From Candidatus Micrarchaeota archaeon (lineage in GTDB: Archaea > Micrarchaeota > Micrarchaeia > Anstonellales > Anstonellaceae), in the NCBI GenBank assembly GCA_964392435.1, contig CAYMOY010000001.1, positions 7,484-71,483 on the forward strand: 64,000 bases of DNA, read 5' to 3'. Each line of letters begins with the position of its first letter. Within the stretch, counting starts at the first letter, position 1. A program made the position numbers and the translations under genes. Under the pieces are notes generated by a model. The model was not told where the DNA came from. It did not search any database and was given only the letters and a program-made list of their open reading frames with translations. This document shows, piece by piece, positions 1,468-63,205 of this stretch.

Positions 1468-1612
1468 GGGCCCGTAGTCGAACAACCCTTTTGCTCGCTC
1501 CAGATGGGGACGCTCGCAAAAGCGTTGACGGAAAATTGCAAAGGGGTTCGACAATGGTTAAGACGTCGCTCTTACACAGCGAAGATTCGGAGTTCGATTC
1601 TCCGCGGGCCCA
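1468..1612 (+). tRNA. tRNA-Val (anticodon TAC) with ~72-nt non-canonical intron in the D-loop
   Basis: Acceptor GGGCCCG/CGGGCCC, D-stem GTCG/AGAC, anticodon stem TCGCT/AGCGA with loop CTTACAC, T-arm CGGAG-TTCGATT-CTCCG, discriminator A; 5' exon 1468-1482 separated from rest (1555-1612) by intron. Confidence 0.6.
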
Positions 1613-1648: not shown

Positions 1649-3406
1649 CTAGCACACCTGGCTGGCTGGAGGGCAAACCGGATTCTGCCCAGGGCAATCG
1701 GTGCATGGGTGCTCCGTCTTCCAGGTGCTTATGGGCCCAAGGCAGCAGCAGCCGTAGGAAAAGGAATTGAACGAAAGCGAAAGGTAGGTGCTGTTCGTGC
1801 TTGAATACCTGCAGGTGGTGAAACACTGTCTGGCTTGAATTGCGGCAAGCGCAGCATTGACATCTGCAGCTATTTTCTGTTCGCACGCGGCGCGCGCGTT
1901 TTCTCCCTGCGCATAGGCGGTCAGCCCTATTCCCTGGCATTCGATTGCGCAGTTCACCGGGACAGGGTCGCAAACATCTCCAATCCCATCCCCGTCATGG
2001 TCGGACTGGCTTGGGTTGTAGCTGCTCGGGCAATTATCTGCAAAGTCGCATTTCCCGTCGGCATCAGTATCCTGGCAGGCGCATAGGCATGACTGGGAGC
2101 AGGAATAGTTTTGCGGGCAGGAGCCAGCATTCCCGTCGCACTCCTCGCCGCCTTCCTTCACTCCGTTTCCGCAGGCTGCGGGCGCTACTGTGTTCTGGCA
2201 GGAACACTGCTGGTTGCAAGTCTGGCTGCCCGAACAAGCGTTTCTATCAGCACCGTCGCACTGCTCGCTTCCCTCGCGGACATTGTTGCCGCACACTGCT
2301 TGCGCGGCTGTTGCCCAGCAGTAGCAGTTGGAGCAGGTCTGTGTCGCATTGCAGTAGCCCCGGTCCGCCCCGTCGCACTGCTCGCTTCCTTCGCGAACAT
2401 TGTTGCCGCACGTGGCGGTGGTGACAGAATCGATTATCAGCACCAGCCCCTTGGTGCTCTGGTTCACAGGGCATCTGCAGTTTGGCTGGCACACTGCGCC
2501 GCCGCAAAGCTCGGCTGATGCCCCGTCGCACTGCTCGGTTATTTCCCTTATCCCGTTGCCGCACACCCCCTTCGTGCCCACCACGCATTCGCACTCTGAT
2601 GAGCATACCTCGTTTGAATCGCAGTACCAGTCCTGATTGCCGTCGCACTCCTCCATCGCCTCCTTGAAATTGTTGCCGCAGGTGTGCGAGGTCACATCCT
2701 TTGGTATGCACGTGCAGGTCCTCAGGTCGCACTTGTAGTCCATGCCGAACAGGTCCGAGCAGTCGTCGCCGCAAGAGGGCAGGGTGGTCCAGATGAAATT
2801 GTTGAGCCCTGTGGATGAGGCGTACTGGTGGTTCGCCTTGCAGCTTATGGGCATTGCCGCGGTGTAGCATTTGCAGCCGCTGCAGTATTCCCCACCGCGG
2901 CATCCGTTGGCTGATGGCTTGTCCTTGCTGCCGACATCGCAAACCTCCCCAGAATCAAGGGTGCCGTCCCCGCAATAAGGCTGGGCGGCCTTGGGCGCAG
3001 GCGGAGCCGTGGTGTTGTTCTGCATCCCTTGCCCTGCGGCATCGGCAGGCTTTGCCTTGCACAGGCAACTGGAAATATTGCATTGCCGATTGGCATCCTG
3101 GCATGCGATGCCCCCCTCGCACTGCTCGCCCCCCTCCAGCTTGCCATTGCCGCAAGATGGAGCTGGCGGTTGCTCTGTTTTGTTTTCTGCGGATGGCGCG
3201 GCAGCCGGGGCAGGTGGCTGGGCATCCTTCTTCACGCACTTGCAAGACCTGCATATTTCATCGATGCCAGCGCAGCCAGCGTCGCTTTCGCACACTTCGC
3301 TCGCATCCAGCCTGCCATCGCCGCAAACAGGGGCAGGCTGCGTGCATCCGAAATACAACAAGGCTGATGATAGCAGAACAAGCAGCAACAAACGGGAAAA
3401 CTCCAC
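1649..3406 (-). CDS. Secreted cysteine-rich repeat protein (Myxococcus-type Cys-rich repeats CGNGxxExxEQCDG plus thrombospondin type-3-like DxDxDGxxDxxDNCP repeat)
   Basis: ORF 1649..3493; probable GTG start at 3406 gives a signal peptide (M)EFSRLLLLVLLSSALLYFGC. Repeated VCGNGIREITEQCDG / TCGNNVREGSEQCDGADR units; DTDADGKCDFADNCPSSYNPSQSDHDGDGIGDVCD. Confidence 0.7.
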   Translation of the reverse strand: MEFSRLLLLVLLSSALLYFGCTQPAPVCGDGRLDASEVCESDAGCAGIDEICRSCKCVKKDAQPPAPAAAPSAENKTEQPPAPSCGNGKLEGGEQCEGGIACQDANRQCNISSCLCKAKPADAAGQGMQNNTTAPPAPKAAQPYCGDGTLDSGEVCDVGSKDKPSANGCRGGEYCSGCKCYTAAMPISCKANHQYASSTGLNNFIWTTLPSCGDDCSDLFGMDYKCDLRTCTCIPKDVTSHTCGNNFKEAMEECDGNQDWYCDSNEVCSSECECVVGTKGVCGNGIREITEQCDGASAELCGGAVCQPNCRCPVNQSTKGLVLIIDSVTTATCGNNVREGSEQCDGADRGYCNATQTCSNCYCWATAAQAVCGNNVREGSEQCDGADRNACSGSQTCNQQCSCQNTVAPAACGNGVKEGGEECDGNAGSCPQNYSCSQSCLCACQDTDADGKCDFADNCPSSYNPSQSDHDGDGIGDVCDPVPVNCAIECQGIGLTAYAQGENARAACEQKIAADVNAALAAIQARQCFTTCRYSSTNSTYLSLSFNSFSYGCCCLGPISTWKTEHPCTDCPGQNPVCPPASQVC

Positions 3407-3504
3407 ATTCCCACCCCCTGAGGTTATCCTCGTTTCGGTTTTTATTTCTTTTGGGCATCCCGAAGCATCATGCTCAAAGCACGCTCCTTCCAAGCCAGGA
3501 AAAA

Positions 3505-4530: not shown

Positions 4531-4941
4531 TTGGTCTGCATGAAACAGATAGCCATAGTTTCCGATGACAAGGTGGGCCTGCTTGCCGATATCTCATACA
4601 TTCTTGGCAAGGCAAGGATAAACATCGAGTCAATCTCAGTCCAGACGCACGGGGGCAAGGGCGTCATCAACCTTACGGTCAAAGACGACCAAAAAGCGAT
4701 AAAGATGCTCTCCTCAAACGGCTTCGAGGTTCTCTCCTCCGAGATTATGCTAATCAGGCTCAAGGACGAGCCTGGAGAGATGTCTAAAATGACCAAGATG
4801 CTCAAGGACAACCACGTCAACATCGAATCTCTTTATATCGTGGCCCGGGGGGAAGATGGGTTTGCCATACACGCGCTCAAGGTGGACAAGCCCAAAAAGG
4901 CGAAGAAGCTGCTTTCCCACTCAATAATGACTTCAGACTAG
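4531..4941 (+). CDS. ACT-domain protein (tandem ACT-like)
   Basis: IAIVSDDKVGLLADISYILGKARINIESISV... ; C-terminus KVDKPKKAKKLL shared with next gene. Confidence 0.6.
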   Translation: MVCMKQIAIVSDDKVGLLADISYILGKARINIESISVQTHGGKGVINLTVKDDQKAIKMLSSNGFEVLSSEIMLIRLKDEPGEMSKMTKMLKDNHVNIESLYIVARGEDGFAIHALKVDKPKKAKKLLSHSIMTSD

Positions 4942-5049
4942 CCAGTCAGGTCTTGTTTTAGGGTGCCCGCAGTAGGCTGTCCTGCTTGCGGCAGAACGCT
5001 TTTATACTCCGGCAGCGATTGTTTGCCGGGAGGTGGGTCTGTGAAGCAG

Positions 5050-10214: not shown

Positions 10215-10805
10215 ATGGACAATGCATTCGGCAGAAAATACAAGCGGGTGCTGGAGATACTCCCAGATGTTGCGGAGTGCGCAGGGGAAAAACTGATCCT
10301 GGTGGGCGGGACCGCCCTTGCCCTCTTCCATTTGAAACATCGCGTCAGCGTAGATTTGGATTTCGTGCCTGCCGGCGGCAACGACATCAGGCTAAAGGAA
10401 GAGCTCAAAGGCTGTATGTCAAAGAGAGGCTACCGGACCTCTCCTGGGCGCTTCAAAAACCAGTTCGTGGTGCAGTTTGAGGACACCAGCATAAAAGTGG
10501 AGATTTTCATCCCAGACAGGAAAATCAAGCGCGTCGAAGAGCACGAATTTTGCGCCAGAAAGATACGGGTGGCTTCCTGCGAGGACATTTTTCAGATGAA
10601 AATTGCCGCCTATAAGGACAGGAGAGAGGCGCGCGACCTGTTTGACATATTCTGCATACTTCAGGCCCGCGGGCGGGATTTTGGCATGGTGAAGAAACTA
10701 TTATCCGGCGGCATGCCGAAAAATATCGGCGACCTGGAGATTATGGCGCTTAACCGGTCTGATGCGACTGGATTGCGGAAGGTGATTCTTGATGCTTCTT
10801 CCTAA
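10215..10805 (+). CDS. Nucleotidyltransferase-fold protein (AbiEii/DUF1814- or MNT-like toxin/antitoxin-type NTase)
   Basis: Pol-beta NTase motif LILVGGTALALFHLKHRVSVDLDF (hG[GS]...DxD). Confidence 0.55.
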   Translation: MDNAFGRKYKRVLEILPDVAECAGEKLILVGGTALALFHLKHRVSVDLDFVPAGGNDIRLKEELKGCMSKRGYRTSPGRFKNQFVVQFEDTSIKVEIFIPDRKIKRVEEHEFCARKIRVASCEDIFQMKIAAYKDRREARDLFDIFCILQARGRDFGMVKKLLSGGMPKNIGDLEIMALNRSDATGLRKVILDASS

Positions 10806-11346
10806 GCAGGCAATCAGTTTCCGGTCTCTTTTCGCCCAGGGCTTTGCCAAAACAGAAATCTCATCAATGTCCGCTTCTCTCAAGCTGTTTCCCTCCCCTT
10901 TCAAGGGGATTTATTATGTGCCTTTGGAGGAGGAAAGGAAAGGCGGGTTCATCGAAAAGCCGCTTGCGGCGCTATCCCAGGCAATTCGCATTTTCCTGGG
11001 AAATAGCAATTTTTATTTCAGCTGCCAGACCGCTGAGGAGGCGCTCGGATTTGACTGGCAGCCCTCGGGCAGCGTGCATGTGGTCAATGAGAGGCTTTCC
11101 AGGCGGATAAACCTGAACCGAAGGATTGAGGCAAACCGTGCAAAAGGCAGCTGGCGCTCAAGGAAAATTGCGAAGCTGCTTTCATTTTACGGGACCGAGA
11201 TAGTGTTCCATCGCGGCAGCATTGAACGCGCCAGGACAAAACAGATGCCTTACGGGCAATTCGCGCGCCTGTCGCAAATAAAAAAAGACAGGAAAAGGTT
11301 CAGGGAAATCAAGGGAAACAGCGGCGGCATGGGCGGGGACTACTAA
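10789..11346 (+). CDS. Hypothetical partner protein of the NTase; C-terminal residues NSGGMGGDY are encoded by the duplicated thermosome tail
   Basis: Overlaps upstream gene by 17 nt; ORF terminates with the same stop codon context as ths. Confidence 0.4.
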   Translation: MMLLPKQAISFRSLFAQGFAKTEISSMSASLKLFPSPFKGIYYVPLEEERKGGFIEKPLAALSQAIRIFLGNSNFYFSCQTAEEALGFDWQPSGSVHVVNERLSRRINLNRRIEANRAKGSWRSRKIAKLLSFYGTEIVFHRGSIERARTKQMPYGQFARLSQIKKDRKRFREIKGNSGGMGGDY

Positions 11347-11362
11347 GGCTTTTTTCTTTTTT
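11321..11362 (+). repeat. Direct repeat copy 2 (duplicate of thermosome 3' end), right boundary of inserted cassette
   Basis: Identical to 9920-9961. Confidence 0.8.
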
Positions 11363-11420
11363 ACTTTTTTTGTTTCTTCCTTTTCTTTCTATAGTGCTTG
11401 TCATGCGCTTTTCCATGCAC

Positions 11421-12449
11421 TCACTTCTCATCCGGCGCACACAGCCTTTCCGATATTTTCTTTCCTGAAGGAAGGTATTTTGAGAGGCTATGCGGCAGCT
11501 GCGCGGTCATCCTATAAGTGGAAACACCGATTGGTTTTTTTACCTCTTTCAGCGCATACTCCACAATCGTCCTGTCCTTGCTCTTGCAGATGATTATTCC
11601 AATCGAAGGCTTTTCGCCCCCCATTCTCACCTTGTCATCAAGCACCGAGAGATAGAATTGCATCTTTCCCGCGTACTCAGGCATGAACTCCCCGACTTTT
11701 AACTCTATTGCCACGAGGCATTTCAACTTCCTGTGGTAAAGCAGCAGGTCAACAAAAAACTCGCTGCCGCCGACTTCAAGCCGGAACTGGTTCCCAATAT
11801 AGCAGAAACTGCCGCCCATTTCCACAAGAAAGCTTCTCACCCGTTTCATGAGCGCGCCTTTCAGTTCTTTTTCAGAATGCTCCCCTCCCAGCTCAAGAAA
11901 ATCAAACGTGTACTCATCTTTGACTGCCAGCTTTGCCTGCCCTTTGTACCTGGCTGGCAAGGCTTTATCGAAATTAGTCTGGTTTGTGAGATATTTCTCA
12001 TACGACCTATTCTCAATCTGGTGGATAAGCACGCTTTTCGTCCAGCCAAACTTCCGGATCATTTTGATATAGAACTCCCTTTCAAGGTCGTTTTTGCACT
12101 TCTCCATGACAACTAGGTTCTTAGCCCAGCTGATTTCTCGCACCAATGGTGCGAGTTTTGCATTTTTGCAGTAGCTTTGGTAGAAATTCCGCATTCTCCA
12201 AAGACTGGCGGGGGAAAAGCCATGCACACCGGGATACTCCTTCTGCAGATCAAACGCAAGCCTTTCTACAATCGCCTTGCCCCAGCTGAACTTTTCCTGC
12301 TTCTCGGCTATTTCCCTGCCGATGTCCCAGTAAAGATTAACGAGCTCCTTATTGACTGCCTTCAGCGCGGAATACTGCGCCTCCCGTATCCTGTTCTTAA
12401 TCTCAATTACAAAATCCCTGTAGCCAGATTCCTTTACGAGCGCACTCAT
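11421..12449 (-). CDS. PDDEXK-nuclease family protein (DUF1016/YhcG-like)
   Basis: N-terminal ...AVNKELVNLYWDIGREI... and C-terminal LVAIELKVGEFMPEYAGKMQFYLSVLD match DUF1016; start at internal Met (12449) of ORF 11421..12500. Confidence 0.6.
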   Translation of the reverse strand: MSALVKESGYRDFVIEIKNRIREAQYSALKAVNKELVNLYWDIGREIAEKQEKFSWGKAIVERLAFDLQKEYPGVHGFSPASLWRMRNFYQSYCKNAKLAPLVREISWAKNLVVMEKCKNDLEREFYIKMIRKFGWTKSVLIHQIENRSYEKYLTNQTNFDKALPARYKGQAKLAVKDEYTFDFLELGGEHSEKELKGALMKRVRSFLVEMGGSFCYIGNQFRLEVGGSEFFVDLLLYHRKLKCLVAIELKVGEFMPEYAGKMQFYLSVLDDKVRMGGEKPSIGIIICKSKDRTIVEYALKEVKKPIGVSTYRMTAQLPHSLSKYLPSGKKISERLCAPDEK

Positions 12450-12524
12450 TTCAACCACATCGCGCAAATGTGGGCAGTTCCACGCATTAAAAACATTCAC
12501 AGGGTAGCATGCCAGTAGTTTTTC

Positions 12525-13409
12525 TCACTTCCTTTCCCATCCCCTTGCCATCTCCTTTTCCAGGAATCTCACCAGGGGCGCCACCCCGCGATTGGTCTCG
12601 TAAGCGTGAAGCGCAGAATAGTAGGCGTGCCTTTTCCGGTAAAAGATGACCACGGGCGGCAGGCCGTTTTTCAGCAGTATGTTGTTCATCAGCAGCCTTC
12701 CCACCCTGCTCGTGCCTTCACGGAAAGGGCGGATGTTCTCGAACTGGCAATGCACCAGTGCGGCAAGCACCAGCGGATGGCGCCTTTCCCTGTTGTTATT
12801 ATACCATTCCGCCAGCCCAAAAAGCAAGCCCTTCACCTGGCTCCAGGGGGCGCCCCTGTGCACAATCTCGCCCTGCCGGTTCCTTACCACCAAGTCGACG
12901 CGCCTCAGTTTCCCTGCAAACGGCTCGGAATTCCTGAAAGCCGCCTTGTGCAGCTCCAGCATCAAAGGAACGGACAGGTGCGTTTTTGTCTCAGCCAGCA
13001 TCCTTGTTGCTCTTGCAACCCCGTAGGTTTCGGCAATGTCCTCCTTTGGCTTGTCGGGCCAGAGGTTGTTCTTCAATATCTCGCCTGCCTCCCTCCGGGT
13101 AATGCTTGAGCCTTCGATGGCATTGCTGTTGTAGGTGAAATCCACCACAAATTCCTCCCACTTCTTTTTTCCCACCCTTGCCCTCATTGCCCTTGCCTCC
13201 ACGCTGCCAAATGCGATTTCCCACTGCCCCATCAGCTTTTCCCTGCCCTCAAGCTGCTTTCTGGCAGCCTCGTGTTTGAGCACCAGCTCCTCCCTTCCCA
13301 AATTGGTGCCCAGGTAAACCCTGTCTTTCCTCACCTTCTGCCCCTGCCGGTACGAGCGGGTCAGGTAGAATTTCCTCATTTTCCTTTTTCCCCTTGCCTC
13401 AATGTACAT
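12525..13409 (-). CDS. Fic/DOC family protein with degenerate active-site motif (RPFREGTSRVGR instead of HPFx[DE]GNGRxxR)
   Basis: FTYNSNAIEGSSIT N-terminal Fic motif; core motif has His->Arg and GNG->GTS; TATA-like TTAATAAAT ~25 bp upstream of ATG 13409. Confidence 0.65.
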   Translation of the reverse strand: MYIEARGKRKMRKFYLTRSYRQGQKVRKDRVYLGTNLGREELVLKHEAARKQLEGREKLMGQWEIAFGSVEARAMRARVGKKKWEEFVVDFTYNSNAIEGSSITRREAGEILKNNLWPDKPKEDIAETYGVARATRMLAETKTHLSVPLMLELHKAAFRNSEPFAGKLRRVDLVVRNRQGEIVHRGAPWSQVKGLLFGLAEWYNNNRERRHPLVLAALVHCQFENIRPFREGTSRVGRLLMNNILLKNGLPPVVIFYRKRHAYYSALHAYETNRGVAPLVRFLEKEMARGWERK

Positions 13410-13735
13410 GCACCATCTTGGGTGCCTACAATTTATTAATGCTTTCCAAAAGGTGACCACAAAACAGGCAAATCTTCCTCTGCTCCCCCCTTTTTTCCCA
13501 TCTGCCCCCGCCGCAAGAAAGCGCATCCGGCCCTTCCAAAAGCTGAACCGGCGCATCCTTGGCTCTTTGCGCGCGCAAGGGGGGCGAAGAAATGCTTAAA
13601 AACATTACTTTCGAAGCGTCTGAACGTGGAAGGCAGAATACAGGGCAGTTCAGACTTTTCCAGATGCGAGCACGAGCCCAGCCCCCACAAGGCAATAATT
13701 TTCAGCCAGCGTCAGTACTAATCGAGGTGAGCCAT

Positions 13736-16700
13736 ATGGTGTCCCAAAACACAAAGCAAACGTCCGCGCGCATCTTTTCCGCGATTCTATTCGTAGCGCT
13801 TTTCGCCGGGACGGTTGCTGCCGCGTCAAGTGTAACATCGGTTTCAGCAACTACTGCAAACGGTTCCTATAAGGCCGGTTCCTTCATAAATATAACAGTA
13901 ACATTCAACGAATCGACCTATTATATCGGCGGTATTGGAAATCCCTATTTGCTTTTGAATGTGACTACTGGTGGAAGAAATGTGTCCATATTCTCTCCAG
14001 CTCCTGGAATGGGCTCATTGATATTTAACTTCAACTATACAGTTCAGGAAGGCGACACTTCTGCAGTTTTAGACTATATGAACAATGCATCTCTCACCGG
14101 TAGCATTAAGACCATGGAGGACTCTTCGTCATCCATCTTGACTCTTCCAAATCCTGGTGCGGCAGGTTCGCTTGGCGCGAACAAGAATATTACAATCGAC
14201 ACGTCCATCCCAGGAATCACATCAATCAGCACCAACACAACCGACGGCTCTTACAAGGCAGGGACCAAAATCTACCTGTTCGTTGTCTACAACGACTCTG
14301 TAACAGTGTCAGGCGGAACGCCGACAATCGACCTTAACTCAGCAGGAACTGCCCAGTATGTGGGCGGCTCAGGCTCCACCAACCTCTCCTTCCTATACAC
14401 TGTCGCTGCAGGCGAGAACTCTGCAGGGCTGGTCTACAACACGACAACTTCTCTTAACCTCAACGGCGCCACAATCAGGGACGCTGCAGGCAACGACGCG
14501 GTCGAAACCCTGCCAGCAACCGCGACATTCACAGGGGCACACGCAATTGTCATCGACACCATACCCCCGGTAATCACCGGCCTTGCGCTTTCCCCAAGCA
14601 GCGGCTACGCCAAGATAGGTGATGTAATCCACCTGGCGATAACAGCTGACGCGGCAGGCTACACCAACACATCAATAACGGTCAACGGCATCCCGGCAGA
14701 GGATTTCGAGGACCTGACCGGCGGCGCCTACGGAGTTAACTACACAATCGCAACCGGCCACAGCGACAGGGCAGCAGGGTTAGTCCCTGCAAGCGTCACC
14801 CTGTCCGACGCCGCTGGCAACTCAGTGACGTATTCCACAGTGGGTGCGAACACACTTGAAATAATCGCAAATGCGCCAATAGTCTCCTCAAACGCAATTG
14901 TCACTCCCGCGGGCTCCTACAAGGCTGCGGATGTTTTGAGCTTCTCGGTAACCTACAACAAGACAGTGGTGGTGACCGGCACGCCCAGAATAAAGCTCAA
15001 TGTTGTGGGAGCTGCCACCAGGTATGCGAATTTTGTCTCAGGCAACGATTCGGCCATTCTGGTGTTCAATTACACGGTGGTTGACGGAGACAACTCGGCT
15101 GACCTTGGGGCTGAGGACACAAGCTCGCTTGATCTGAACAGCGGCACAATAAAGGACCTGGCCGGCAACAACGCGGTCAACACGCTTGATGACGACTTCA
15201 CAGGAAGCAGCGTGGTAGTTGACACGTCCATCCCTGGAATAACGTCAATCAGCACCAACACAACCGACGGCTCTTACAAGGCAGGGACCAAAATCTACCT
15301 GTTCGTTGTCTACAACGACTCTGTAACAGTGTCAGGCGGAACGCCGACAATCGACCTTAACTCAGCAGGAACTGCCCAGTATGTGGGCGGCTCAGGCTCC
15401 ACCAACCTCTCCTTCCTATACACTGTCGCTGCAGGCGAGAACTCTGCAGGGCTGGTCTACAACACGACAACTTCTCTTAACCTCAACGGCGCCACAATCA
15501 GGGACGCTGCAGGCAACGACGCGGTCGAAACCCTGCCAGCAACCGCGACATTCACAGGGGCACACGCAATTGTCATCGACACCATACCCCCGGTAATCAC
15601 CGGCCTTGCGCTTTCCCCAAGCAGCGGCTACGCCAAGATAGGTGATGTAATCCACCTGGCGATAACAGCTGACGCGGCAGGCTACACCAACACATCAATA
15701 ACGGTCAACGGCATCCCGGCAGAGGATTTCGAGGACCTGACCGGCGGCGCCTACGGAGTTAACTACACAATCGCAACCGGCCACAGCGACAGGGCAGCAG
15801 GGTTAGTCCCTGCAAGCGTCACCCTGTCCGACGCCGCTGGCAACTCAGTGACGTATTCCACAGTGGGTGCGAACACACTTGAAATAATCGCACATCTGCC
15901 TGTGGTTTCTTCAGTTAGCTCGGATGGTCGGACATTCAATACTGGGGGCAGTTCAACCTCTATAATAACAGTTACTTTCAACAAGAGCATGAGTGTTGCC
16001 CCCTCAATATCTGTCAACAGCTTAAGTTTAACAGTGAATGACTGTGGCGACTCGAATGCAACGACTTTCTGCATTGCCTACCAAATACCGAGCTCATACG
16101 CAGGCAGTATGACTATACAGATTTCCGGGGCAAAGGACCTGGCAGGAAACACGATGGCGGCGGACAACTCGCACACTTTCGATGTTGACACCGTCCTGCC
16201 CACAGTGACCGCATCCTCGCCGCAGGGAGGCACTTCCGCATCCTCGCCCATTACAATTAACGTGACCACCAGCATAGCGGCATACTGCAAGTATGACACG
16301 CAGGACCGGTCGTATGCCACAATGGCATACAACTTCAGCAACGGGCAGGGAACAACCGCGCACACAAGCAGCGTGGCACTCGCCTCGCAGGGGCTCAACA
16401 ACATCTACGTGGCTTGCGCGAGCATGAACGGAAGCGCAATGACCTCATCTGTGAGGCTGTACACCACATATGACACCACCAGCAACTTCAACTACACCAA
16501 GCAGCTCAACCTTGGGTGGAACGACATGCCTCTGCCCAGAGTGGTTCTGGAGGACCTCGACTCGTTCTCTGACGGGAACTACAGCGTGGTGAACGTGCTT
16601 GAGACAAAGGGCGGGATAGGCGGCAGCTACGACTACCTGTACTACCGCAACGGCACCTCCTGCTCGTCGCAGAACGGGAGCTGCTGGCTGTTCTACGACC

Positions 16701-16798
16701 CGTCACTTGTGACTGGCACCCTGTCTGAGTTCAACGACTGGGACAACCTGCCATACTGGATACACATGAACGCCAGCGACAGGCTGGAGCTCAACTAG
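13736..16798 (+). CDS. Large secreted surface (S-layer-like) glycoprotein with repeated Ig-like domains and internal perfect DNA repeats
   Basis: SD GAGGTGA then MVSQNTKQTSARIFSAILFVALFAGTVAAA signal; >60 N-x-S/T sequons; repeated ~110-aa SYKAG...LNGATIRDAAGNDAVETL modules. Confidence 0.75.
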   Translation: MVSQNTKQTSARIFSAILFVALFAGTVAAASSVTSVSATTANGSYKAGSFINITVTFNESTYYIGGIGNPYLLLNVTTGGRNVSIFSPAPGMGSLIFNFNYTVQEGDTSAVLDYMNNASLTGSIKTMEDSSSSILTLPNPGAAGSLGANKNITIDTSIPGITSISTNTTDGSYKAGTKIYLFVVYNDSVTVSGGTPTIDLNSAGTAQYVGGSGSTNLSFLYTVAAGENSAGLVYNTTTSLNLNGATIRDAAGNDAVETLPATATFTGAHAIVIDTIPPVITGLALSPSSGYAKIGDVIHLAITADAAGYTNTSITVNGIPAEDFEDLTGGAYGVNYTIATGHSDRAAGLVPASVTLSDAAGNSVTYSTVGANTLEIIANAPIVSSNAIVTPAGSYKAADVLSFSVTYNKTVVVTGTPRIKLNVVGAATRYANFVSGNDSAILVFNYTVVDGDNSADLGAEDTSSLDLNSGTIKDLAGNNAVNTLDDDFTGSSVVVDTSIPGITSISTNTTDGSYKAGTKIYLFVVYNDSVTVSGGTPTIDLNSAGTAQYVGGSGSTNLSFLYTVAAGENSAGLVYNTTTSLNLNGATIRDAAGNDAVETLPATATFTGAHAIVIDTIPPVITGLALSPSSGYAKIGDVIHLAITADAAGYTNTSITVNGIPAEDFEDLTGGAYGVNYTIATGHSDRAAGLVPASVTLSDAAGNSVTYSTVGANTLEIIAHLPVVSSVSSDGRTFNTGGSSTSIITVTFNKSMSVAPSISVNSLSLTVNDCGDSNATTFCIAYQIPSSYAGSMTIQISGAKDLAGNTMAADNSHTFDVDTVLPTVTASSPQGGTSASSPITINVTTSIAAYCKYDTQDRSYATMAYNFSNGQGTTAHTSSVALASQGLNNIYVACASMNGSAMTSSVRLYTTYDTTSNFNYTKQLNLGWNDMPLPRVVLEDLDSFSDGNYSVVNVLETKGGIGGSYDYLYYRNGTSCSSQNGSCWLFYDPSLVTGTLSEFNDWDNLPYWIHMNASDRLELN
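14222..14869 (+). repeat. 648-bp perfect direct repeat, copy 1 (inside surface protein gene)
   Basis: Identical to 15245-15892 (offset 1023 bp); ORF track shows identical spurious ORFs 14358..14573 and 15381..15596. Confidence 0.9.
15245..15892 (+). repeat. 648-bp perfect direct repeat, copy 2
   Basis: See copy 1; flanking 25 nt nearly identical with 3 mismatches. Confidence 0.9.
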
Positions 16799-16855: not shown

Positions 16856-18445
16856 ATGGTCGCAAAAAACGCGCTGCTCTTCGCAGCATTGCTTGCAAGC
16901 TCCATGTTGTCTGCCGGTATGGGGAGTTGGTACGGGCAGGTGCTCATCAACGGCACGCTGGCAGCTGACGGCACCCTGGTTTGCGCCTATGTGAACGGTG
17001 TTGAAAATTCCAGGGCTTCAGTTGGCAGTTGCCCAGGCAGCCATTATTGCATGACTGTGATAGGCAACACCGGTGACAACGTAACTTTCAAAGTTTTCTG
17101 CGACAGCAATTATCCAGCAAAAGAAGGGGTGCAGGCATGGTCTGCAAGCCCCCCGACCAACATACTAAACCTCACTGTTGATTATGCCTCGGTTGAGGGC
17201 AACGCTTCGGATATAGTCACAAACGGCACCGGCACCCTCAACATAACGATAAACGGCACCGTCCCGGGCAACACCACCTATTATAACGACGTAGAGACCG
17301 TGACCATCTCTTCCCCAAGCGGAGCCATCCTGTCGTTTGGCTACAATTTCAGCAATTCGTTCCTTAATCTTTCCACCATCAGCATAGCAAACGGAACAAG
17401 CGGCGGCGCCTCCTACATATCGGTCAGCGGGGTGAACAACAGCGGCGGGCAGTTCGGCACCAAGACGCTCGTGGTCTACAACACGAGTCCATCATACAAC
17501 TCCATCTGCGTGAAAGACGCTGAAGGGGTGACATACCTGAACATAACCGCCGCCTGCACCGACGCAAATGAGGTGCAGGTGCCCTGCACCGGCACGGCAA
17601 GCGGAATAACCTGCACGAAGTCAGGGACCACCCTCACCATTTCAGGGCTGGTGCACTCCGCAGCCATGCAATTCAACATAGTCACTCCAACGCCAACTCC
17701 CTCGCCTTCAGGCAGCTCATCAAGCGGAGGCGGCTCGGTCGGCGGAGGAGCGGCTGGGGCAACCTCCACCAAGCTGTCCACCGATTATGTTGTGGACATA
17801 GGCACGGCAAACTGCACAGTCAGCCTGAAGCGCGAGCTTGTTTCAGGCAACGTTTCGGTGCTAACAACCAATGTTGAGAACAAAGGGGGAAGCGAGTGCA
17901 CCATGGCGGACTTTGTCTTTTCAGACACCATACCTGACAGCTTCGCATCGATGAACGAGATAAACTTCACCCCGGCATACACCTCGCGCGAGGGCTGGAA
18001 GGTGGCGTTCACTTTCCCGACATTCGTGGGCGGCGAATCCAAGTCAATAACCTACTCGGTTGGCAAGCGGGTGCCCCCCTCAAGGGTGAATAACTTCACC
18101 ACTGTGGAGATGTCTGCGGAGAAGAAGTTGCCTGCGCCCAAGGTCAATGCCCCAACAACAACGCCCAAGGAAGAGCCTGAAGTTGCGCCTCCGGCGCCAG
18201 GTTCCGACAAGGACATACACGGCTGCATAGGCTCGGCAGGCTATGCCTGGTGCGAGGCAAAGCAAAAGTGCCTGCGCGCCTGGGAGGAGGAGTGCGTTGC
18301 GCCGGCAAAGGCCGCCCCGCAGGAGCAGGCGAAATCTGACAACACCGCGCAGATGGCGCTCATAGCTGCAGTCATTCTTGCGGGCATTGCCATAGTCGGC
18401 GCAGGAGTTTACTTTTTGGCAAAGAGGAAGCACAAAAGCAGCTAA
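16856..18445 (+). CDS. Secreted surface glycoprotein with Pro/Thr/Ser/Gly linker and C-terminal transmembrane anchor
   Basis: Signal peptide MVAKNALLFAALLASSMLSAG; many NxS/T sequons; PTPTPSPSGSSSSGGG linker; C-terminal MALIAAVILAGIAIVGAGVYFLAKRKHKSS. Confidence 0.7.
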   Translation: MVAKNALLFAALLASSMLSAGMGSWYGQVLINGTLAADGTLVCAYVNGVENSRASVGSCPGSHYCMTVIGNTGDNVTFKVFCDSNYPAKEGVQAWSASPPTNILNLTVDYASVEGNASDIVTNGTGTLNITINGTVPGNTTYYNDVETVTISSPSGAILSFGYNFSNSFLNLSTISIANGTSGGASYISVSGVNNSGGQFGTKTLVVYNTSPSYNSICVKDAEGVTYLNITAACTDANEVQVPCTGTASGITCTKSGTTLTISGLVHSAAMQFNIVTPTPTPSPSGSSSSGGGSVGGGAAGATSTKLSTDYVVDIGTANCTVSLKRELVSGNVSVLTTNVENKGGSECTMADFVFSDTIPDSFASMNEINFTPAYTSREGWKVAFTFPTFVGGESKSITYSVGKRVPPSRVNNFTTVEMSAEKKLPAPKVNAPTTTPKEEPEVAPPAPGSDKDIHGCIGSAGYAWCEAKQKCLRAWEEECVAPAKAAPQEQAKSDNTAQMALIAAVILAGIAIVGAGVYFLAKRKHKSS

Positions 18446-33412: not shown

Positions 33413-33722
33413 TGCGGAGCGGCGGGAGGACGGCTCACCGCGCCCTGCTTTGCGGGGCGGGGAGGAAGTTCTGCCCACCGGAAAGAGTCCAAATCGCTTA
33501 AGGCGATATCGGGAACAGAAACGATTAACCGCCCCCTCCGATGAGAATGACGAAAGGAGAGGGGGGGAGCGGGTTGAAACGGCCCGTGCTTGGAAACAAG
33601 ATGCACGGTGCAAGGCCTTGTGCCGCTTGTCCATCCGCGAGGATGGATAGCTGGGGGGCAAAAGCCCTCCGGATAGTCCAATGCCGTCTGAAACAGAAGG
33701 CAGACTACTACCTGCCGCTCCT
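33413..33722 (+). ncRNA. rnpB: RNase P RNA (archaeal type A)
   Basis: GGGGAGGAAGTTCTGCCCACC (cf. GGAGGAAAGUCCGGGCUCC, P4 5' strand), GAAACAGAAGGCAGACTA (ACAGAAnCCGGCUUA, P4 3' strand), GGTGCAAGGCC (conserved GCAAGGCC), GNRA loops, P1 pairing GGAGCGGC/GCCGCTCC; TATA-like CATTAAAAG ~25 bp upstream; overlapping ORFs are low-complexity. Confidence 0.65.
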
Positions 33723-34743: not shown

Positions 34744-34983
34744 TTAGTCGCCGCCGCCCTTGTTGAGCTTGGAAAGCAGGATGAAGACCATAACAGCCGC
34801 CACTAGGCCTGCTGCGTATGGGACGTACCACTCATCAAGCCCCATCCGGTTTTCGCTCCACACCCAGGCTATTGCGTAGCCCACTACCAATGCCAAAGCC
34901 AGCTTGGCAAACCCGAGTATTGCCCGGGTCTTGTCAGATCCCATGCAATCGATTTTCCAGCCAACGCTTAAAAGCCTGCCCAA
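34744..34983 (-). CDS. Small hypothetical membrane protein (2 TM)
   Basis: 79 aa ORF; weak. Confidence 0.3.
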   Translation of the reverse strand: MGRLLSVGWKIDCMGSDKTRAILGFAKLALALVVGYAIAWVWSENRMGLDEWYVPYAAGLVAAVMVFILLSKLNKGGGD

Positions 34984-35072
34984 AGCGGAATTCCCCGGCA
35001 GCTCCAGGCTTTGGTTTAAAACGTTTTTCCCCCGTATCCTTGCGCTCCCATTTTTTGGGGGAGGTTGGTTTG

Positions 35073-35297
35073 ATGGTGGAAAAAAGACCTTTTGACATAC
35101 TAAATGGCGCCCTGAACAACACCGTGGTGGTGGGCCTCAAGGGAGGCAGGGAGCTTCGCGGAACAATGGCATCCTACGATGTCCACATGAACATAGTGCT
35201 TGAAAAGGCGGAACATTTGGAAAACGGGGAGGTCAAGCGCGGGCTGGGCACTGTCCTGGTGCGCGGAGACTCGGTCGTGTACATTTCCCCTTCCTGA
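35073..35297 (+). CDS. Sm-like (LSm/SmAP) protein
   Basis: SD GGGGGAGGT; MVEKRPFDILNGALNNTVVVGLKGGRELRGTMASYDVHMNIVLEKAEHLENGEVKRGLGTVLVRGDSVVYISPS. Confidence 0.85.
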   Translation: MVEKRPFDILNGALNNTVVVGLKGGRELRGTMASYDVHMNIVLEKAEHLENGEVKRGLGTVLVRGDSVVYISPS

Positions 35298-35311: not shown

Positions 35312-35416
35312 GGGCTTGTGGCGCAACGGTAGCGCGCCTGCATGGCATGGCCATTTCGCAGCGGCGGAATGGGCACATAGTGCAGGAGGCTGGGGGTTCG
35401 AATCCCCCCGAGTCCA
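35312..35416 (+). tRNA. tRNA-Ala (anticodon GGC) with 33-nt canonical intron (after position 37)
   Basis: G3:U70 identity pair, A73, D-arm GCGC/GCGC, anticodon stem CCTGC/GCAGG, loop ATGGCA|intron|T, T-arm GGGGG-TTCGAAT-CCCCC. Confidence 0.75.
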
Positions 35417-35575: not shown

Positions 35576-37204
35576 GTGGGAATGGCGGAGCAGTTTACTG
35601 ACAAGGAGAAGGCGATACTCTCGCAGTTTTGCACCAACCTGGACAGCGACTGCTTTGTGCTGGTCAACCTCCCGGAGGCGGTGAAGGGCGCGCTTTTCTC
35701 CCGCTATTCGCGCTCCTCAAAGTCATTGCGCCGCGTGCTTCTCGAGGAATTCATACAGAGCCCCGAGTCAGGCTTTGAGGCGATTGTCGGTTCAGCGCAG
35801 GGCAGGGGGGAGTCGCAGCTTGTCGCAACCAAAAAAGCGGAAGATTTCTACGACCGCGTGCTGGTGGGCTATGGCGACGACTCGGTTGCGGAACTTGGCG
35901 GGGCGCACCTTGCGGCAGAGAACATCTCAAACTTAGTGACAAAAGTGATGCAGGACAGCAGAATAGGCGTTTCCCCGCTTGAAAAGTCCACGCGCTACGT
36001 TTACTTCGACCAGAAAGAGAACGGGCGCTACCGCTACTTGCGCGAGGATCGCATCATGTCCTCCAAGTTTGCGGATGAATACGTGCGTGTGTGCGACCTT
36101 CTATTTGAAACTTATGCATCCCTCATAGCTCCTTTGACCGAGGTTGAGCAGAAGAAAAATCCGCGTGGAGCGGATGTCTCTGACAGGGCATACGCATCCA
36201 CGATAAGGGCAAAAGTGTGCGACCTGCTCCGGGGCATATTGCCATCCAGCACACTCACCAACGCCGGCTTTTACGGGAACGGGCGCGCATTCGAGTACAT
36301 GCTTGCCAAAATGTACGCCTCCCCCCTTTCCGAGGCGCGCTCAGTTGCCAAAAGTGCCCAGGCAGAGCTGTCCAAAGTTATCCCCTCGTTCGTGAAGCGG
36401 GCGGATGACAAATACGGCAAGGAGCTGCAGGGCTATATCTCTGCGAACAGGGAGGCGATAGAAAAGCTTGCTTCAGGCTACCTGCAGCTGCAAGCGGCAT
36501 CACCAGACACCGCGCACGTTTCTCTCATTGACTATGACAAGGATGCAGAAGACAAAATCCTCGCAGCCATTATCTTCTCCGCTTCTCACTCAGAGATGAA
36601 TGAGGTCAAGGCTGCAGTCCAGAAAATGCCGCCCTCTGAAAAGCAGCAGCTCCTCTCAGCATACATCGGCACGCGCGCCAACAGGAGGCAAAAGCCGGGC
36701 CGCGCGTTCGAAGCGGCTTACTACACGTTCTGCGTCACAGGCAACTTCGGCATGTATCGCGACTTGCACCGCCATAGGATACTCACCCAGGAGCGGCAAT
36801 TGCTCACTACGAAACACGGGTTCGATATGCCCCCGCAGCTGGTGGATGCCGGCTTTGCTGAAAAAGTTTCAGCCGCAGTGGCAGCGGCAGACGCCCTCTT
36901 CACGCGCATGTCTCCTTCCATGCCCTACGAGGCGCAGTATATTGTGCCGCTTGGCTGCCGCATGCGCTGGTACATCAGGATGAACCTGCGCGAGTGCTAC
37001 CATTTCTGCGAGCTTCGCTCAATGCGACAGGGCCACCTGGACTACAGGCGGGTTGCGCAGGACATCCACAGGCTGATTGCCTCGGTGCACCCGAATCTGG
37101 CGGCAGGGATGAAGTTCGTGGACTATGGGAGCTACGAGCTTGAGCGGCTGGAAGCAGAGAAAAAGATAGACAGGAAGCTTGATGCTCTCAAGAAAAAAGG
37201 CTAG
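35576..37204 (+). CDS. ThyX-like (flavin-dependent thymidylate synthase family) protein, apparently with duplicated domain
   Basis: C-terminal half has LHRHRILTQERQ and LRSMRQGHLDYRRVAQDIHRLI resembling ThyX RHR and aQWEiR motifs; N-terminal half FSRYSRSSKSLRR degenerate. Tentative. Confidence 0.4.
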   Translation: MGMAEQFTDKEKAILSQFCTNLDSDCFVLVNLPEAVKGALFSRYSRSSKSLRRVLLEEFIQSPESGFEAIVGSAQGRGESQLVATKKAEDFYDRVLVGYGDDSVAELGGAHLAAENISNLVTKVMQDSRIGVSPLEKSTRYVYFDQKENGRYRYLREDRIMSSKFADEYVRVCDLLFETYASLIAPLTEVEQKKNPRGADVSDRAYASTIRAKVCDLLRGILPSSTLTNAGFYGNGRAFEYMLAKMYASPLSEARSVAKSAQAELSKVIPSFVKRADDKYGKELQGYISANREAIEKLASGYLQLQAASPDTAHVSLIDYDKDAEDKILAAIIFSASHSEMNEVKAAVQKMPPSEKQQLLSAYIGTRANRRQKPGRAFEAAYYTFCVTGNFGMYRDLHRHRILTQERQLLTTKHGFDMPPQLVDAGFAEKVSAAVAAADALFTRMSPSMPYEAQYIVPLGCRMRWYIRMNLRECYHFCELRSMRQGHLDYRRVAQDIHRLIASVHPNLAAGMKFVDYGSYELERLEAEKKIDRKLDALKKKG

Positions 37205-41775: not shown

Positions 41776-41880
41776 GGGCCCATAGTCGAATGGCCGCCTG
41801 TCCTTGGGGCTGCGGCTCGACAATGGTAAGACGTCTGCTTGACGTGCAGAAGACTCGGGGTTCGATTCCTCGTGGGCCCA
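41776..41880 (+). tRNA. tRNA-Val (anticodon GAC) with 33-nt non-canonical intron in the D-loop
   Basis: Acceptor GGGCCCA/TGGGCCC, D-stem GTCG/AGAC, anticodon stem TCTGC/GCAGA loop TTGACGT, T-arm CGGGG-TTCGATT-CCTCG, A73; intron 41794-41826 (CCGCC...AATGG). Confidence 0.6.
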
Positions 41881-41947
41881 TTCCGAACCCAGGGGAACCT
41901 ACGGTTCCCCTAGGTTTGAGGTTCTTCCGTAACCCCTCCCTTTTTCT

Positions 41948-50186: not shown

Positions 50187-50260
50187 GGCCACGGTGGTGT
50201 AGCCTGGTAGCACGGGAGACTGTGGATCTCTTAGCCCGAGTTCAAATCTCGGCTGTGGCC
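50187..50260 (+). tRNA. tRNA-His (anticodon GTG)
   Basis: G-1 opposite C73, acceptor GCCACGG/CTGTGGC, anticodon stem GGAGA/TCTCT with loop CTGTGGA, T-arm CCGAG-TTCAAAT-CTCGG. Confidence 0.75.
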
Positions 50261-50296
50261 TCACTTCGTTCAGCCACAGTCTCGCCGCCTTTCGGC

Positions 50297-63076: not shown

Positions 63077-63205
63077 GCCTCGGGCAGGACTTGAACCTGC
63101 GACCTATGGATTGCTGCCGTTGCATTCGCAACAGTTAACAGTCCATCGCTCTACCGTTCAGTCTCAAGAGGGCGCACCCTCAAGAAAAGACTGAGCTACC
63201 GAGGC
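63077..63205 (-). tRNA. tRNA-Asn (anticodon GTT) with two introns: 33-nt D-loop intron and 24-nt canonical 37/38 intron
   Basis: Acceptor GCCTCGG/CCGAGGC, D-stem GCTC/GAGC, anticodon stem ATGGA/TCCAT, loop CTGTTA|intron|A, T-arm GCAGG-TTCAAGT-CCTGC, G73. Confidence 0.65.

Follow-up and report, generated by a model that had tools for sequence, protein, structure and literature searches.

The window analysed here, a stretch of 64,000 nt, harbors six tRNA genes, five of which are interrupted by altogether six introns and, at 105-145 nt each, exceed normal tRNA size. The gene set combines Rfam hits with a custom scan that required a T-arm, next to it an acceptor 3' strand and, at most 300 nt upstream, a 5' strand able to pair with the latter; tRNA-Ala dropped out of the T-arm/acceptor scan owing to G.U pairs and was recovered via Rfam. 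The exons of each interrupted gene are contiguous and collinear within these 105-145 nt, so that none of them represents a split or permuted tRNA gene. Five of the six genes are preceded by TATA-like A/T boxes, identified by eye, at a distance of approximately 20-40 nt, that of tRNA-Asn lying nearer to its gene at about -27 to -17.

The tRNA-Val(TAC) gene (1468-1612, forward strand) is composed of exon 1 (1468-1482) and exon 2 (1555-1612), separated by a 72-nt intron (1483-1554) inserted into the D-loop between positions 15 and 16 (15/16). tRNA-Val(GAC) (41776-41880, forward strand) is organized in the same way, with a 33-nt intron at 15/16 (41791-41823) between exon 1 (41776-41790) and exon 2 (41824-41880). 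On the reverse strand, tRNA-Asn(GTT) (63205-63076) comprises three exons (63205-63189, 63155-63136 and 63111-63076) and two introns, a 33-nt intron 1 in the D-loop at 17/18 (63188-63156) and a 24-nt intron 2 at 37/38 (63135-63112). Single introns at 37/38 were found in tRNA-Ala(GGC) (35312-35416, forward strand; Rfam score 56.1 bits), which carries G3.U70, and in tRNA-Phe(GAA) (63368-63239, reverse strand; 49.9 bits), where they measure 33 nt (35348-35380) and 56 nt (63330-63275), respectively. tRNA-His(GTG) (50187-50262, forward strand), with an encoded G-1, is the sole intron-free tRNA gene in the window. For the three D-loop inserts, these coordinates and lengths are exactly those that an earlier note had read from this DNA, and its claims of a second intron at 37/38 in tRNA-Asn and of canonical introns in tRNA-Ala and tRNA-Phe were likewise borne out.

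Several features adjoin these genes. Immediately downstream of tRNA-Val(TAC) lies a 614-aa ORF (1649-3493, reverse strand) without a Pfam family at E <= 0.001. An LSm-domain ORF (34818-35297, forward strand) stops 15 nt before tRNA-Ala; its true start is probably located later, because only the C-terminal ~65 aa match LSm. tRNA-Ala itself lacks a clear TATA-like box and may share a transcript with this ORF. Further downstream, a 542-aa ORF (35576-37204, forward strand) includes two Thy1 (ThyX) stretches. ThyX proteins usually have about half this length, and the ORF may encode a tandem-domain thymidylate synthase.

A 34-nt direct repeat with 33 of 34 identical positions was observed at tRNA-Asn (63089-63056 and 63011-62978, reverse strand). 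Its first copy is made up of the last 14 nt of the gene and 20 nt of trailer, and the second copy follows 78 nt downstream, past two hairpins. A second CCGAGGCG was also kept in the syntenic loci L131 and L137, where it follows a hairpin ~50-60 nt downstream of tRNA-Asn. The repeat may have been left by an old integration event as an att-like footprint, or it may be a conserved element that acts in processing or as a terminator. Another partial copy of a tRNA 3' part was noticed at tRNA-Val(TAC), where the 13-nt sequence ATTCGGAGTTCGA of the variable loop and T-arm (1585-1597, forward strand) is repeated at 1618-1630, 5 nt past the 3' end of the gene.

The window encodes the housekeeping functions thermosome, ABCE1, IleRS, DnaG, RFC, Pelota, enolase and an LSm protein. 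Archaeal RNase P RNA, thermosome and ABCE1 mark the host as archaeal, with best matches in Micrarchaeota. Judged from its protein matches, the host is a Micrarchaeote (DPANN) rather than a member of the Thermoproteales or Korarchaeota, since ABCE1 shares 70-81% identity with proteins from genomes labelled Candidatus Micrarchaeota, Micrarchaeia and Anstonellaceae archaeon; Anstonellaceae-like MAGs constitute the closest lineage. The lineages which the earlier note had associated with such an intron load therefore narrow to its "uncultivated groups", while Thermoproteales and Korarchaeota drop out. The RNase P RNA (33418-33719, forward strand) reached 86.5 bits, which barely exceeds the Rfam gathering score of 84 and for this reason suggests a divergent or reduced molecule. 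Elsewhere in the window, a YhcG/DUF1016 PD-(D/E)XK nuclease (11421-12500, reverse strand) and a Fic-domain protein (12525-13556, reverse strand) belong to a cluster (10215-13556), possibly a small islet of defence genes or of mobile origin. Two ORFs of 1079 aa (13559-16798) and 529 aa (16856-18445), both on the forward strand, matched no Pfam family at E <= 0.001.

The interrupted genes were poorly recognized by tRNA finders, as had been predicted in the earlier note. The Rfam scan of the window returned, besides RNase P RNA, four tRNA hits above threshold and two just below. tRNA-Val(TAC) was truncated, with 37.8 bits, a missing 5' part and a wrong 5' end, and tRNA-Val(GAC) and tRNA-Asn scored 28.5 and 26.7 bits, under the gathering score of 29. 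Uninterrupted relatives scored 66-75 bits, and five interrupted tRNA-Val genes were missed in the relatives searched; the genes at loci L054, L109, L020 and L082 all went undetected by Rfam at the gathering score. ARAGORN in default mode reported only tRNA-His and a malformed 77-nt 'Val-GAC' at 41805-41881. The earlier note had held that continuous genes placed elsewhere by a tRNA finder would speak against its exon joins. This candidate is formally such a gene; we rejected it because its 8-bp acceptor stem includes a G.G mismatch as well as G.U pairs, its D-stem has about two pairs and its score (28.5 bits) also falls below the Rfam threshold, and the interrupted gene model stands. Genes called by ARAGORN -i on the raw window were likewise discarded as gene definitions, as they were assigned to the wrong isotypes, Tyr and Ser.

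Altogether, three of the six tRNA genes in the window were missed or mis-bounded by ARAGORN and the Rfam tRNA model. Since finders miss interrupted genes, apparent tRNA gaps in DPANN genomes can be annotation artefacts. Kaneta et al. 2018 considered that incomplete DPANN tRNA sets probably conceal undetected disrupted genes (PMC5829648), and tRNAscan-SE 2.0 has dedicated models for introns of the bulge-helix-bulge (BHB) type (PMC8450103).

Removal of the inserts yielded products of 72-74 nt that ARAGORN folded into full cloverleafs with the expected anticodons for Val-TAC, Val-GAC, Asn, Ala and Phe. All five spliced products feature 7-bp acceptor stems, U8, G18G19 and TTCRA T-loops; conserved G18G19 and T54 were the positions by which the earlier note had proposed to judge the exon joins. 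Spliced tRNA-Val(TAC) and tRNA-Asn, both 73 nt in length, formed perfect cloverleafs. Furthermore, the spliced Val and Asn products aligned without gaps at the join to uninterrupted genes in relatives and were 82-89% identical to them, the differences residing mostly in the anticodon stem. Spliced tRNA-Val(TAC), for instance, aligns collinearly (85% identity) with its uninterrupted Micrarchaeales counterpart in L072.

In BHB introns, a 4-bp helix is reportedly flanked by two 3-nt bulges, each holding a splice site between its second and third base, a geometry attributed to Marck & Grosjean 2003 and to the structure of an endonuclease-RNA complex by Xue et al. 2006. We applied this as a junction rule, in which the last six bases of exon 1 provide one strand of the central helix (H, 4 nt) plus two bases and the last six bases of the intron provide the opposite strand (H', 4 nt) plus two bases. 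When all possible junctions were scanned with this rule, the Val junctions of the earlier note gave by far the longest intron helix, with 11 bp in Val-TAC and 6 bp in Val-GAC. The central helix was paired at all four positions in Val-TAC, Val-GAC and both Asn introns, and a 3-nt bulge containing the 5' splice site as well as an intron-side helix (h') were present in all three D-loop introns. Moreover, the four junction regions were more stable than dinucleotide-shuffled sequences (z = -3.9, -3.3, -2.8 and -2.3; -3.88 for Val-TAC), and the minimum free energy (MFE) folds of both Val regions display the succession of helix, 3-nt bulge and helix.

In Val-TAC, the motif delimited by the rule scan and a constrained fold extends from 1477 to 1555 (forward strand). 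Its central helix pairs GTCG of the D-stem 5' strand (1477-1480) with CGAC (1549-1552), the first bulge is AA|C (1481-1483, the bar marking the splice site), the 3' site is AA|T (1553-1555), and h' consists of 11 bp (1484-1494 with 1538-1548), while the exon-side helix h is absent. Val-GAC likewise pairs GTCG (41785-41788) with CGAC (41818-41821), followed by the bulge AA|T and an h' of 6 bp. The motif of Asn intron 1 (63153-63194, reverse strand; same scan and constrained fold) pairs TCAG (63194-63191, tRNA positions 12-15) with CTGA (63162-63159), with bulges TC|T and AC|G, an h of 2 bp, and an h' of 4 bp, a 2x2 mismatch and a further 5 bp closed by a TGCG loop. In Asn intron 2, the central helix CTGT/GCAG (4/4 pairs) adjoins an h of 5 bp from the anticodon stem. 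The 37/38 introns of the two remaining genes have incomplete central helices. Ala forms three of the four central pairs when read by eye, a relaxed motif, and the strict 4/4 scan returned nothing at the Ala site; Phe, likewise read by eye, also has three of four pairs, with U33 unpaired, and the same central helix is kept in L131 and L137.

The folding of exon-intron junctions that the earlier note had suggested as a check thus revealed BHB motifs, which at the D-loop sites are relaxed HBh' motifs and not the strict type described as the '3-4-3 nt hBHBh' motif' in PMC3239211. The D-loop introns do not form the strict motif, since h measures 0 bp in Val and no more than 2 bp in intron 1 of Asn. 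For Val, classification as relaxed HBh' follows from the absence of an exon-side helix, which is 0 bp in all six Val D-loop introns considered (two in the window and four in relatives). From their predicted structure, the Val motifs would not serve a strict alpha4 or alpha'2 enzyme.

The sequences permit a 4-bp central helix in more than one register: Val-TAC has four such registers, Val-GAC has two and Asn has two to three. The helices can slip, and each register would give a different D-loop length. The introns could then be real but cut in a slipped register, leaving longer D-loops, e.g. 10 nt (AACAUGGUUA) in Val-TAC and 10 nt (AGUCUCGGUA) in Asn. Among archaea, D-loop lengths of 9-11 nt are frequent, and the unconstrained MFE structure uses a 5-bp helix shifted by one base. 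Among the strict 4-bp alternatives, however, 15/16 has the lowest energy in both Val genes: -29.8 kcal/mol in Val-TAC, compared to -27.0, -25.2 and -22.2 kcal/mol for the slipped registers (MFE -30.8), and -20.0 compared to -16.5 kcal/mol in Val-GAC (MFE -20.3). In Asn intron 1, the 17/18 register (-14.7 kcal/mol) lies 3.6 kcal/mol above an unbulged MFE structure (-18.3 kcal/mol), and this register is supported by the homologous sequences, not by energy.

Homology bears on the Val register as well. The uninterrupted Micrarchaeota tRNA-Val D-arm reads GTCGAATGGT(T)AAGAC in L032, L072, L102 and L109, with one-base loop variants in L019, L063 and L051, and the D-arm of spliced Val-GAC, GTCGAATGGTAAGAC, is that of the uninterrupted genes in L102 and L109. 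For Asn, the D-loop measures 8 nt in 13 uninterrupted genes sharing the same T-arm and acceptor; it reads AGTTGGTA or AGTTGGTG there, in agreement with the product AGTCGGTA. As uninterrupted homologues have exactly the D-arms produced by the 15/16 and 17/18 joins, we regard these registers as settled. The 15/16 register also gives 4/4 pairs in four related Val genes (L027, L020, L082 and L054), and cutting in a slipped register is very unlikely.

Relatives of the tRNA-Val genes were collected by a 15-mer scan of species-representative genomes, in which chance bacterial matches dominate. Approximately 13 of 120 loci among the matches listed contain a real tRNA-Val gene, and at least about a dozen of the matches listed are Micrarchaeota loci; the census of relatives is incomplete. 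An insert directly following GTCGAA was found in four relatives, L027 (33 nt), L020 (24 nt), L082 (45 nt) and L054 (27 nt). Together with the two genes of the window, all six tRNA-Val genes with such an insert carry CGAC or CGAT at positions -6 to -3 from the 3' junction. In each of the six genes, this tetranucleotide pairs 4/4 with GTCG in the register given by exon homology, although the intron bodies are unrelated. The calculated chance of 4/4 pairing is about (6/16)^4 = 0.02 per gene.

The locus L027 is syntenic with the window, with ACT-domain and NFACT genes 2.4-2.7 kb downstream (~55-63% amino-acid identity), and its Val-TAC gene has exons 100% identical to those in the window and an unrelated 33-nt intron at the same site. 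ACT-domain neighbours are also shared with L054, which is AT-rich and labelled Iainarchaeum; its Val-TAC gene (4860-5037) is interrupted by three introns, at 15/16, after the anticodon and in the T-loop. Such related tRNA-Val genes are broken up still more than those of the window. In L020 (7126-7361) and L082 (3175-3365, reverse strand), the 15/16 intron is accompanied by a long second intron near the anticodon (~140 and ~75 nt, respectively), and a tRNA-Val gene in L109 (5328-5444) contains a T-loop intron only. The syntenic Val-GAC gene in L063, which adjoins DnaG (80% amino-acid identity), is devoid of the intron, so that at least one presence/absence difference exists between fairly close relatives. 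The 15/16 site carries an intron in Val-TAC, Val-GAC and Val-CAC genes from five or more genomes, with intron bodies of 24-72 nt, and each of these introns includes a 3'-proximal CGAY, two bases before the splice site, which imitates the D-stem 3' strand. These alignments indicate that the site recurs across Val isoacceptors and genomes with complete turnover of the intron sequence.

Relatives of tRNA-Asn were retrieved from a metagenome scan with the 3' exon (20 loci). The gene order IleRS, enolase, tRNA-Asn, tRNA-Phe of the window recurs in L131 and L137 at 70-73% DNA identity, and each of these two loci has both Asn introns in the positions seen in the window. The three-way alignment shows no exon difference, all variation being confined to the introns. 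The helix segments of intron 1 are invariant, while its loop varies (TGCG, AAAG and ACAG), and the hairpin of intron 2 displays a compensatory change from CTGTTGC/GCAACGG to CTTCCTT/GAGGAGG. The adjacent Phe introns differ in length between the window, L131 and L137 (56, 51 and 24 nt by hand count). In a further locus, L139 (metagenome contig Ga0180009_10122716), a 161-nt tRNA-Asn apparently contains several inserts, one of them in the D-loop after AGT; no BHB was found at any register of this gene.

This conservation is relevant to the question of whether the genes are alive. They could be tRNA pseudogenes that small insertions have disrupted, the functional copies residing uninterrupted in other parts of the genome: the view is limited to 64 kb, which leaves room for paralogues, and the intron-free syntenic tRNA-Val(GAC) in L063 implies that the intron is dispensable. 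Against this, the exons are undamaged and 100% conserved among syntenic relatives, the flanking DNA of which shares only ~70% identity, and the inserts are always placed so that a 4-bp helix, a 3-nt bulge and a hairpin are able to form. Micrarchaeota genomes are moreover small, TATA-like boxes precede the genes, and small archaeal genomes usually contain one gene per anticodon. We consider decay into pseudogenes highly improbable.

The inserts might also be footprints of mobile or integrative elements, or self-splicing introns of group I or II. The partial tRNA 3' repeats just downstream of tRNA-Asn and tRNA-Val(TAC) hint at past integration, and group I introns occur in archaea including Micrarchaeota (PMC6125680). 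Yet the repeats are located outside the genes and are unrelated to the D-loop inserts, which are not flanked by target duplications. Furthermore, with 24-72 nt the inserts are far too short for a ribozyme core of several hundred nt, and the Rfam scan gave no intron family at E <= 10. The probability of either origin is close to negligible. Comparison of the introns within the window by eye for signs of transposition disclosed no similarity beyond the sequence required by the motif, and inspection of the 72-nt intron by eye likewise revealed no C/D-box motifs of a guide RNA.

Altogether, these data make it very probable that the window contains genuine, functional Micrarchaeote tRNA genes with introns of the archaeal endonuclease (BHB) type, which would be removed by splicing. 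In the proposed precursor, four bases of the 5' exon would pair with four intron bases located two positions upstream of the 3' splice site to form the 4-bp central helix. For Val, the exon partner would be the D-stem 5' strand at positions 10-13 (GUCG), with the intron's CGAC imitating the true partner AGAC; for Asn, it would be positions 12-15 (UCAG). Next to this helix, a 3-nt bulge would present the 5' splice site after its second base and lead into the intron-internal hairpin h', while the 3' splice site would be located in an unpaired part of the D-loop, two bases 3' of H'. Both sites would be cut by a splicing endonuclease tolerant of relaxed motifs, putatively of the epsilon2 type or another loop-bearing DPANN EndA. 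An RtcB-type ligase would then presumably join the exons and the D-arm would refold, and the 37/38 intron of tRNA-Asn would be released through its separate, near-canonical BHB. This predicts that the Micrarchaeote lineage needs an endonuclease accepting HBh' motifs without an exon-side helix. Within the 64-kb window, no EndA gene was found by motif scan and tblastn with M. jannaschii EndA, a query checked against PDB 1A79, and no gene for RtcB or another ligase was found.

The recurrence at 15/16 invites a further speculation, namely that Micrarchaeota and neighbouring DPANN lineages have long kept this position in tRNA-Val as an intron slot under selection. If this were true, the intron would not be neutral. 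It would keep the D-arm in an alternative pairing until splicing and might act, e.g., as a maturation or modification checkpoint or protect the gene against integrating elements; its sequence would change by wholesale replacement rather than drift, and L063 would represent a secondary loss. We regard this as unlikely.

The host shares its phylum with Candidatus Micrarchaeum acidiphilum ARMAN-2, in which 56% of the tRNA genes are disrupted according to Fujishima et al. 2011 (PMC3239211). The two belong to different lineages of the phylum, the window being closest to Anstonellaceae-like MAGs. The examples presented by these authors reside in the T-loop (53/54 and 59/60) and at 37/38; the window introns occupy 15/16, 17/18 and 37/38. 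The epsilon2 EndA of ARMAN-2 cuts strict and relaxed motifs in vitro (PMC3239211; structure PDB 4FZ2). The window introns add to this already known class. A high intron load has already been published for ARMAN-2 (PMC3239211), and the current view of archaeal tRNA splicing is unchanged.

Introns inside the D-loop are also known from other phyla. In pre-tRNA-Thr(UGU) of Aeropyrum pernix, a BHB intron within the D-loop is removed in vitro by the EndA of this organism; the endonuclease alone suffices, without guide RNA or modification, and requires its specificity loop (PMC3241643). A. pernix is a member of the Crenarchaeota with an (alpha-beta)2 enzyme and a motif described as a full BHB, in contrast to the Val introns of the window, which are without an exon-side helix. 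Pre-tRNA-Glu(UUC) of Methanopyrus kandleri has two introns, an HBh' intron in the D-loop and a canonical one at 37/38 (PMC5829648), which is also the architecture of tRNA-Asn(GTT) in the window. In this euryarchaeon, however, the D-loop intron is inserted at 20b/21, on the other side of the D-loop from 15/16 and 17/18. Multi-intron tRNA genes also occur in the Thermoproteales, with 0.84 introns per gene (PMC8450103, PMC4090602). Their load is comparable to that of the window (six introns in six genes), as are the varied positions and the turnover of introns at conserved sites. The Thermoproteales represent an unrelated phylum (TACK) in which transposition of introns between genes was shown, whereas no similarity beyond the motif was seen among the window introns. 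Together with its syntenic relatives, the window offers a small and clean set of cases for how tRNA introns evolve in archaea other than the TACK group, comprising unrelated introns at one site (window compared to L027 and L054), presence and absence of an intron (L063) and a two-intron gene with compensatory change (L131 and L137).
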